This document shows, one piece after another, positions 9,001 to 12,000 of a DNA stretch of 25,350 nt (position 1 is the stretch's first letter; each line of letters opens with the position of its first letter). The position numbers were made by a program. Origin of the DNA: Escherichia coli. GTDB lineage: Bacteria > Pseudomonadota > Gammaproteobacteria > Enterobacterales > Enterobacteriaceae. Where the stretch lies: assembly GCF_003334255.1 (NCBI RefSeq), contig NZ_QOWU01000041.1; one strand, given 5' to 3'.

Positions 9001-12000
9001 CCATTTGTCGCGCTTCAGTACACTTTGTACAAGCTCACGACCTTTATTTTCCGTCTCGTTCCAGTTCAGATACGATTTCCAGGTACCGAAGGTGAAAGAA
9101 TGATCATAGCCAGCTGAAATTTTGTTTCGCTCATAGCGCAGGGTACGGTCATATCCCCCGGTCAGACTCCCCAGCTGCCCGTCCCGGTTATCATAACGCT
9201 GCCGGGTGGTATCCATATCAAACCAGAGTACATCCTGCTCCGTGGCTTTCCAGTCAAGACGCGCACCAATATTATAATTCTGTGACTCCGTGGGATAAGG
9301 AATACGCGTGGCTGCTGTGTCGCTCAGTGATGTGACCGATGAGCCCTGACGCTGCTGTGTGCTGCCCCGGACCTGCAGACTGACAGAATCATCCACAAGG
9401 GGACCACTGGTCCAGAAATTAAACTGGCTGCTGTTACCCCATTTGTTGCTTTCCTGCAGATTCAGCCCTGCATTGACGGAAGAGAGCCATTTGTCTGCAT
9501 TCTTTCTGGTAATGATATTCACCACACCGCCCATCGCATCAGAGCCATACAGTGTGGACATCGGCCCCCTGATAACCTCAATACGCTCAATGGCGGCCAG
9601 AGGAGGCATGAACCCGGTATTCATGGCAGAAAAACCGTTGGGAGTCACGTCACTGCTCCCGCCCTGACGAACACCATCAATCAGTATCAGCGTGTAACTG
9701 GCAGGCATTCCACGGATGCTGATTTCCAGCCCACCGGTTTTACCCGTACCACTTTCAACATCCACACCCTCGACAGATCTCAGAGCCTCCGCCAGATCGT
9801 GGTACTGACTGGACTGCAATTCCTCCTAGCTGATCACAGAGACACTGGCGGCTGCGTTAGTCAGTTTTTTCTTATAGCCGGATGCCGAGACAATCATCAC
9901 ATTCTCTGCAGCAGCCATGCTGCTGGCTGAGAATCCGAGGCAGGGAATGATGACAGAAGCCAGAGTGGTTATTCGCATATTAATAATCTCCGATCATATT
10001 AACCGGCAAGACAATACACAAATACAAACAATAATGAGAATAATTTATATTTACTTTTTACAAAAACTGAAGATTCATAACAAAACAAAATATATACAAC
10101 GACTTCAGCGACACGCCTGTTAACGGCTATCTGCCTGACAGATTCGATTCTGAATGTAAAACCGGTTACTGCAGAAACGTATGCTCACAGCCAGTCGGCC
10201 ATAAATGCTCTCTGGAGGGGCACGAGTGAAATGATTCAGTCAATGAGTTCTTCCGGTGAATACGGATAAAAATATTGCCGTAATGTAATAAACGTGTTAA
10301 TTAAAAAACGCGTGTACCGGCAGGTATGAATTGATCCCGTAACCCATCTGCCGGTTACACGCTGGCACTTATTTTTCTGCCTCCATACCATTCAGCCACA
10401 ACAGCAGATAGAACAAATCGGCCGCATCCACAACCTGGATATACCATCTCAGATGCGTATACTCCTCCTCTGACGGCCAGCATTCATGACCACCCACGGA
10501 AACAAGCAGATAGACCTTTCCGGTATCACCTTCCAGCGTCACCGCCACGCTGCTGTTCATGCCAACCCGCTGGGGCTGGCATACAACACGACGCAACTTT
10601 CCCAGACGACGATTAAGGTGTGAGCGCAGCCGCAGAAGATGCGGCTGTGTTATCTCTGTCACCCCGGGCTTACCCTGTGGCGGCAAAAAAAACACAACGC
10701 CACCCGGATGCACCGCTGTCTGCAGCTCCGGCTCCGGATATTTCAGATACATCATGCCGCACTCTCCACGGCGGAAAGTCCCCGCAGTCTGTCCAGTTTA
10801 CGGGCCACATGGAACGCAGCCTCCAGTTCGCTGCAGTTATGTTCCTTCATCAGCATGCGCCGCTCAGCCTTCTCTTCTTTCTCCGTCATCCCCAGAGCCA
10901 GATAAAGACTCGGTGGCACCGCACGGAACAGCGCCTCAATCTTCTTCGCCAGGACAACCCCCTCCGTATAACAGCCGGACAGTTTGCTCGCCGACATCAG
11001 CACCGCCTTCTGCTCCTCCGTCAGGGATTTAAAACGGGCAATGTTGTTCACCTCTTCCGGCGGCATCGTCAGACACACCCACCACTCCGCCATGTTCAGC
11101 ATTTTCTCTGATATATCCGGATAGTCCTTCAGGTTCTGCGTCGCAAGCCACAGCCAGGCTCCCAGCTTGCGCCACATTTTCACCACCTTCGTCATATAGG
11201 GCGAGAGCAGCGGATTCACCGTCACGATATGCGCCTCATCCACGGCAAACACAATATCACGCCCCAGATACTGGTCACGTTCAGCGATGTTGTTAATCAT
11301 ATTGGTCATTGACACCATCGTCAGCGCCATCTGCGCCTCATACCCCTCACGGGCCAGGTGCCCCAGGTCTATCAGCGTCACATCCGCTTCCGGCCACAGT
11401 TCGCCTTCACGGTTGAACAGCTCCGCTTCAAAACTCCCTTTCTGGGTGAACATTCCCAGTGATTCCGCCATCTCTGCCGCCTTTGCCCGGCGTACCTCGT
11501 TACGTCCCGCATCACAGGAGATTTCCCGGAGTGCCACCTGCAAATCTTCCGGCAGCATCTGCCGCCCTTCCCGGTACGTCGCGTGTGTGGCCATCAGCAG
11601 CGCTTCACGGATCATCGCCCGGTCCGCACGTTTGAGTGAGGCCTCTTCCTTCGGATCACCGCCGGTGATCATCATCCTGGCAGAGATTTCCATTTCTCCC
11701 AGAATGTCGCGTTTCTCCTCCTCTTCATCGCCATCCAGATCGGGCAGCGAGTGCTCATCCACACTCTGCAGGGTCTGCCCTTCTTCAACCAGCTTATGCG
11801 CATCCGCAAAGGGCGGCAGTGTCACACCGCTCCCCGGTTTGACACTGATTTTGTTCACTGAAAGCCCGAGACTTTCAAAGTAATCGGCCAGCAGACCAAA
11901 CGAGTTACCCGCCTCGGCAATAAACAACCGGGGACGATGCACGGCCATCACCTGTGACAGAGAGGCACACAGCGTGGCAGACTTCCCTGCCCCCGTGGGC

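Follow-up and report, generated by a model that had tools for sequence, protein, structure and literature searches.

A 128-codon open reading frame (ORF) of Escherichia coli, for which we use the working name orfX, keeps a fixed place at the 3′ end of traC, the gene of a VirB4-type conjugative transfer ATPase, over a wide evolutionary range, and it is a real gene under selection. Both genes lie in a 25,350-nucleotide stretch of DNA (RefSeq assembly GCF_003334255.1, contig NZ_QOWU01000041.1), hereafter the window, which is a chromosomal integrative conjugative element (ICE) of mating-pair formation type G (MPF_G; ICEHin1056/ICEclc/SPI-7-type) with a complete gene set. The gene context leads us to favour, tentatively, a role for the orfX product as a soluble cytoplasmic accessory factor of the TraC ATPase or of the base of its type IV secretion system (T4SS). 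RefSeq carries the product as a 'hypothetical protein' (WP_032308795.1). Feature coordinates are collected in Table 1; L and P numbers are our working labels of loci and proteins.

The traC–orfX pair is conserved in diverged elements

The identity of TraC is secure. It matches the TIGR03744 (traC_PFL_4706) equivalog at 1394 bits (cut-off 520.6) and is named 'conjugative transfer ATPase' in RefSeq, which bears out the original prediction, made from the sequence of the window, that the gene upstream of orfX encodes a VirB4-like ATPase. The chromosome of E. coli 2015C-3121 contains this region with 100% identity, and the RefSeq annotation of the identical record lists the transfer genes TIGR03745, 03747, 03749–03752, 03756–03759, PFL_4703, RAQPRD, TraG_N and TraD. 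Both hallmarks of an MPF_G system were thus found: the traC_PFL_4706 ATPase and the accompanying ICE-specific genes (TIGR03745–03759, TraG_N and TraD).

In about 30 traC-bearing loci from chromosomes and metagenome contigs, orfX either overlaps the traC stop codon or starts no more than 12 nt from it. The adjacency holds even where the downstream gene order differs, and it spans loci in which the orfX and TraC proteins are 32–98% and 50–99% identical, respectively, to those of the window. A 4-nt ATGA overlap was found in 17 of the 26 plus-strand loci scanned, a count that includes three near-identical places of one protein (L002–L004); the window's own pair is the 18th. A script run over all fetched loci located this arrangement in L002–L005, L008, L009, L011–L013, L015–L018, L022, L025, L027 and L029–L031. 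Elsewhere, the two genes are separated by a spacer of 5–12 nt (L019–L021, L024 and L026) or 4 nt (E. coli NC101), or overlap by 11 nt (L006, from Rodentibacter, and L007). The distant members P0024, P0035, P0051 and P0040, which are 32–44% identical to the window protein by tblastn, start 4 nt before the traC stop, and Rodentibacter P0059, which is 28% identical over the alignment, starts 11 nt before it. A TraC of this type occurs in 101 plasmid records, of which only 28 carry orfX, and all 28 are from Enterobacterales; in most of these, among the matches listed, the match also touches a 'conjugative transfer ATPase'. Conservation of the ORF after traC in related ICEs had been set beforehand as a test of the original prediction, and it was found in the roughly 30 loci and in most of the 28 plasmid records.

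The pair also survives a rearrangement. In Rodentibacter (L006), the gene order is traC, orfX, a gene for a 111-aa protein and TraG_N, with overlaps on both sides of orfX. The 111-aa protein has a match (E 1e-5) in the 121-aa protein encoded ahead of TraG_N in the window, and in Enterobacterales a TIGR03757/TraU/TraH-like block stands between orfX and the gene of the 121-aa protein. Relatives of orfX lie directly after traC in Pasteurellaceae MPF_G ICEs of Haemophilus, Rodentibacter, Gallibacterium and Actinobacillus. Published maps show a single hypothetical gene in the interval from the VirB4 gene to the TraG gene, namely Tfc17 of ICEHin1056 and 'Tfc16' of ICEHpa1 (PMC4027160, PMC9437646), and Rodentibacter differs from these maps in having two small genes between traC and TraG_N. 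Tfc17 of ICEHin1056, so far poorly described, may be the counterpart of orfX.

Two loci, L014 (Erwinia sp. ErVv1) and L028 (Pantoea symbiont of Euschistus servus), keep orfX with only 10% and 49% of TraC covered, respectively; in L014, an extended traC frame continues past the orfX start. These loci may represent decaying ICEs.

Signals for coupled expression

The ATG of orfX (10755–10753, minus strand) shares an ATGA tetranucleotide with the TGA of traC, exactly as the original prediction had stated, and a ribosome-binding site (GGAGAG) is present as well. Purine-rich motifs of the GGAG/GAGG type lie at similar spacing before the orfX start in most of 23 loci. Judged from its position, orfX is transcribed at the end of the traC unit, and its sequence carries signals for termination–reinitiation at the ATGA, aided by its own Shine–Dalgarno site. 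From the end-of-unit position and the signals for coupled translation, we infer that orfX is co-expressed with TraC, and its product would be made when and where TraC is made. Because such coupling together with a separate Shine–Dalgarno site does not fix a 1:1 ratio, the earlier description of the protein as 'stoichiometrically tied' to TraC was overstated.

On the minus strand, RNA folding places a hairpin of −29 kcal/mol 3′ of the orfX TAA stop (z = −3.27, equalled by 1 of 200 shuffles), which is followed by a U6 tract. The narrower limits that a simple terminator scan sets on loop and stem kept this hairpin out of its results, which contained only a sub-palindrome on the opposite strand. 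A near-identical hairpin follows orfX in L033, a close relative of the window element, and GC hairpins with U-tracts, unrelated in sequence, stand 3′ of orfX in L008, L011, L022, L024 and L031. orfX closes a transcription unit in Enterobacterales. The original claim that it is the last gene before a strong terminator therefore stands for the enterobacterial elements; in Pasteurellaceae it fails, since the orfX stop is overlapped by the following T4SS gene.

Two antisense ORFs of 157 and 163 aa are present at 10559–11111 (plus strand of the window), opposite the traC 3′ end and orfX. They are taken to be by-products of the composition of the coding strand.

orfX is under purifying selection and diverges with TraC

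Pairwise ratios of nonsynonymous to synonymous substitution rates (dN/dS) for orfX range from 0.05 to 0.31 in unsaturated pairs, showing that the frame is under purifying selection. orfX diverges 2.5–4 times faster than TraC. Between the window and L002, for example, the orfX protein is 44% identical, TraC 86%, and the other T4SS proteins 74%, 75%, 64% and 77%. Comparison of the window with L032 gives a dN of 0.174 for orfX and of 0.034 for the final 900 nt of traC. Across 136 locus pairs, orfX distances follow TraC distances (Spearman 0.79, Pearson 0.87), which indicates that orfX has been inherited with the T4SS module. The same tracking rules out orfX as a freely exchanged, shuffled cassette.

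These data also bear on the idea that orfX is a chance frame or a decaying remnant without a functional protein, to which we give next to no credence. Some alleles are indeed frameshifted or truncated (in E. coli, the frameshifted P0010, P0018, P0019 and P0021), and the host ICE contains other pseudogenes, such as iha and insertion sequence (IS) remnants. Against this stand the low dN/dS values, the motifs kept across 28 diverged family members, the conserved Shine–Dalgarno site and the confidently predicted fold. Moreover, 110 of 5426 complete E. coli genomes contain a match to at least 80% of the ORF; the match is always chromosomal and, among the matches listed, annotated as a coding sequence in all cases.

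An uncharacterized family with a confidently predicted fold

A word-indexed search returned 21 E. coli homologues of the orfX protein with 61–98% identity. Phmmer, run exhaustively against 1.84 billion cluster representatives, gave 43 clusters at 50% identity (E ≤ 0.001) whose members are typically 121–140 aa long, and a profile search extended the family to 151 proteins, with homologues down to about 30% identity. The hosts in the profile search include Salmonella, Klebsiella, Edwardsiella, Pantoea, Erwinia, Serratia, Cronobacter, Kosakonia and Lonsdalea, among others. A genome scan with a narrower alignment found at least 21 loci, all in Enterobacterales, a taxonomic range that is a lower bound given that the scan relied on a single peptide pattern. 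The 28-member alignment contains the conserved motifs LKYPxP, LPPQG, (H/Q)P(H/Q)R(V/I)G, LLxTVxG, WP and PRWYIxVxDAxDxxYLxLWL.

Rodentibacter P0059 is a true homologue of orfX, as judged by phmmer (E 1.4e-4 library-wide) and hhalign (probability 96%, E 4.5e-9); a search of the plasmid collection with P0059 gave no match. A Foldseek comparison with AFDB50 recovered the orfX fold in Haemophilus, Gallibacterium, Actinobacillus, Glaesserella and Rodentibacter, with TM-scores mostly of 0.63–0.79 (normalized to query length). The 38 AFDB50 matches at E ≤ 0.001 look like family members, and the organisms named are all Enterobacterales or Pasteurellaceae. By both sequence and fold, the family therefore extends to the Pasteurellaceae, in which ICEHin1056-type ICEs occur. 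These relatives do not share the N-terminal LKYP...PPQG arm seen in the enterobacterial proteins.

The family is uncharacterized and lacks a Pfam or NCBIfam model: neither the orfX protein nor the family alignment matched a family in Pfam, NCBIfam, PHROG or PADLOC. Nor is a membrane helix predicted (maximum Kyte–Doolittle(19) value of 1.24), and the N-terminus is unlike a signal peptide. In these respects, the original description of a protein with no signal peptide, transmembrane helix or recognizable motif agrees with our results. The AlphaFold2 model, based on a 28-sequence alignment, has a mean pLDDT (predicted local distance difference test score) of 93.3 and a pTM (predicted template modelling score) of 0.88. 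It features an extended, proline-rich N-terminal arm (residues 1–35) followed by a helix (37–51), four strands (54–64, 67–76, 80–87 and 103–108) and a second helix (111–127), amounting to a predicted α-β4-α topology. The fold is confidently predicted and is without solved relatives: no relative was found among solved structures, and a sequence search of the PDB with the family profile yielded only a chance match, LynD (E 0.19). Structural comparison did not place orfX with the secretion-chaperone fold of type III-secretion-chaperone-like or IcmS-like adaptors.

Many homologues are named 'acetyltransferase' in GenBank and UniProt, and single records read 'Baseplate protein', 'SHB SH2 domain-containing adapter protein B', 'Transposase' or 'DUF5655'. 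Lacking profile or fold evidence, these names look like propagated misannotation. The Pfam profile of DUF5655, a UniProt label of two Pasteurellaceae relatives, was unmatched in the window protein, the 28 members and P0059. That orfX encodes an acetyltransferase, a reading for which the source-given names of homologues are the sole argument, is very improbable. At E ≤ 10, no Pfam Acetyltransf_* or NCBIfam profile matched apart from a chance hit to DUF7704 (0.15), and none matched the 28 members; at 128 aa and with the modelled topology, the protein does not have the GNAT fold. The histidines of the HPHRVG motif are replaced by glutamines in E. coli proteins and are therefore unlikely to be catalytic, which also argues against a catalytic metal site. 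The annotation can thus be corrected, the 'acetyltransferase' label being unsupported for the orfX family.

A possible accessory factor of the TraC ATPase

In the reading that we tentatively favour, orfX would encode a small, soluble cytoplasmic protein that serves as a lineage-specific accessory of the MPF_G conjugation module in ICEs of Enterobacterales and Pasteurellaceae. Its target or partner would be the TraC hexamer at the cytoplasmic T4SS base, where the protein might, for instance, stabilize, dock or gate the ATPase. It would not be an enzyme, nor would the MPF_G design as such depend on it, given that sister lineages do without it. We propose an accessory factor because the traC–orfX pair has been kept through rearrangement, because orfX co-diverges with TraC and because it is operon-internal in Pasteurellaceae. 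The conserved Shine–Dalgarno-like motif, purifying selection, solubility and the confident, compact fold lend further support.

Small cytoplasmic accessory proteins of secretion ATPases include DotY and DotZ with DotO in the Dot/Icm system and FliJ/SctO with FliI/SctN in type III secretion; the genes of FliJ/SctO directly follow the ATPase gene. What orfX may share with these proteins is the concept only, that is, a small soluble partner that is produced together with a hexameric secretion ATPase and acts on it. Lineage-specific small ORFs are common in conjugation operons.

Several observations weigh against a role of orfX at TraC. First, in other MPF_G systems an orthologous TraC works without orfX, and another gene occupies its place. 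In ICEclc, iceB4 (virB4) is followed by orf59110, which encodes a DsbA-like protein of 254 aa with one predicted transmembrane segment, and deletion of orf59110 did not abolish transfer (PMC10018362). The MPF_G system of Pseudomonas aeruginosa pKLC102 likewise has no orfX: its traC stop lies in a 4-nt overlap with a 94-aa hypothetical ORF (L034, 4042–4326), after which comes DsbA. A TraU-family gene directly follows traC in an Aliivibrio plasmid, as does a DUF1525 gene in an Aeromonas plasmid, and orfX is absent from both. From its absence in these four systems we conclude that orfX is a lineage-specific accessory gene and not part of the core machinery. Second, orfX is invariably the most diverged of six T4SS genes relative to the window, and the frameshifted E. 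coli alleles described above count against an important role. Third, no TraC–orfX fusion protein, sought as a 'Rosetta stone', was found; all family matches are at most 180 aa long. Finally, orfX borders a hot spot of cargo insertion 3′ of traC.

The occupants of the slot after traC resemble orfX in position: like orfX, both ICEclc orf59110 and the 94-aa ORF of pKLC102 sit immediately 3′ of a traC_PFL_4706 ATPase gene. Unlike orfX, which is soluble and has neither a signal peptide nor a transmembrane helix, the DsbA occupants are thioredoxin-fold proteins. The 94-aa ORF was rejected as a homologue of orfX (hhalign probability 0.04%), so small ORFs coupled to MPF_G traC recur without detectable homology.

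The main rival reading, somewhat less probable, is that orfX is an accessory gene of the ICE that serves a purpose other than mating-pair formation (for example host modulation, anti-defence, control of the next operon or maintenance of the element) and that merely uses the traC transcript, which gives it expression in transfer-competent cells. Its place at the edge of the cargo hot spot (PMC2258188), with iha, a deaminase-domain protein or DUF2913 inserted right after it, is consistent with such a function, as are its restriction to certain lineages, its status as the fastest-evolving gene of the block and the occupation of the slot elsewhere by DsbA or by small ORFs without relation to it, the ICEclc occupant being dispensable for transfer. 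A gene that only borrows a transcript would not readily account for strict adjacency and start/stop coupling maintained from 98% to about 30% identity and across a rearrangement, nor for the co-divergence with TraC. In addition, the gene is operon-internal between traC and TraG_N in Pasteurellaceae, and its product has no PADLOC or PHROG match.

Going further than the accessory-factor reading, one could regard orfX as a dedicated cytoplasmic subunit or regulator of TraC, an unrecognized T4SS component with an orphan fold that is confined to the enterobacterial/Pasteurellaceae branch of MPF_G and required for efficient conjugation. We regard this stronger claim as less likely than not. The branch would probably include SPI-7- and ICEHin1056-type elements. 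The remaining probability goes to functions outside the readings considered here.

In Salmonella, E. coli, Klebsiella, Haemophilus and plant pathogens, virulence and resistance genes travel on MPF_G ICEs, and the MPF_G T4SS is the least understood proteobacterial type. orfX offers a cheap, testable candidate for a new ATPase-associated component. Should it prove dispensable, it would still show exactly where the conserved traC operon ends and the cargo-insertion hot spot begins.

The cargo slot and other features of the window

Accessory genes are known to concentrate in a hot spot 3′ of traC (PMC2258188). In our loci, the gap between orfX and the TIGR03757/DUF1525 gene, at about 7662–10300 in the window, is a recurrent cargo slot, which fits the published hot spot. 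The window carries an iha pseudogene here, divided by an internal stop into ORFs of 50 aa (9826–9978) and 643 aa (7888–9819). L032, about 82% identical in the stretch of the traC 3′ end and orfX, has an intact iha at the same place, and just 264 nt occupy this place in L033, an iha-free ICE of 98% identity. In E. coli NC101 (L038), the cargo after orfX is a DUF1187 protein; further cargo is listed in Table 1.

Table 1 Features of the traC–orfX region in the window, and cargo at the same place in other loci (locus coordinates)
Feature	Position	Strand	Description and basis
traC	10752..13568	-	938 aa; VirB4-type conjugative transfer ATPase of the MPF_G ICE, directly upstream of orfX
orfX	10369..10755	-	128 aa, 14.6 kDa; soluble protein of an unnamed family (ORF listing, RefSeq coding sequence, homologues, dN/dS, AlphaFold2 model)
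ATGA overlap of orfX start and traC stop	10752..10755	-	Translational coupling; read from the sequence
GGAGAG Shine–Dalgarno-like motif	10762..10767	-	Within the traC 3′ end, 6 nt before the orfX ATG
Intrinsic-terminator-like hairpin (10310–10362) and U6 (10303–10308)	10303..10362	-	Ends the traC–orfX transcription unit; RNA fold
iha pseudogene	7888–9978	-	Bifunctional siderophore receptor/adhesin; between the orfX terminator and the TIGR03757 gene
Cargo in L005	6457–8205		582-aa dCMP_cyt_deam-domain protein
Cargo in L008	6412–7149		DUF2913
Cargo in L002	6488–6751		87-aa ORF

At the left end of the window (about 320–2950; coordinates from the RefSeq annotation of the identical record, as locus coordinates minus 4001), IS1A, remnants of the IS66 family, an HNH endonuclease gene and a PemK/MazF toxin gene form a mosaic that adjoins the TraG_N end of the transfer region. 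Within the conserved transfer region, a gene at 22996–23595 (minus strand) is annotated 'restriction endonuclease'; its neighbours are an ICE protein gene and a gene for a 262-aa hypothetical protein upstream of traD.
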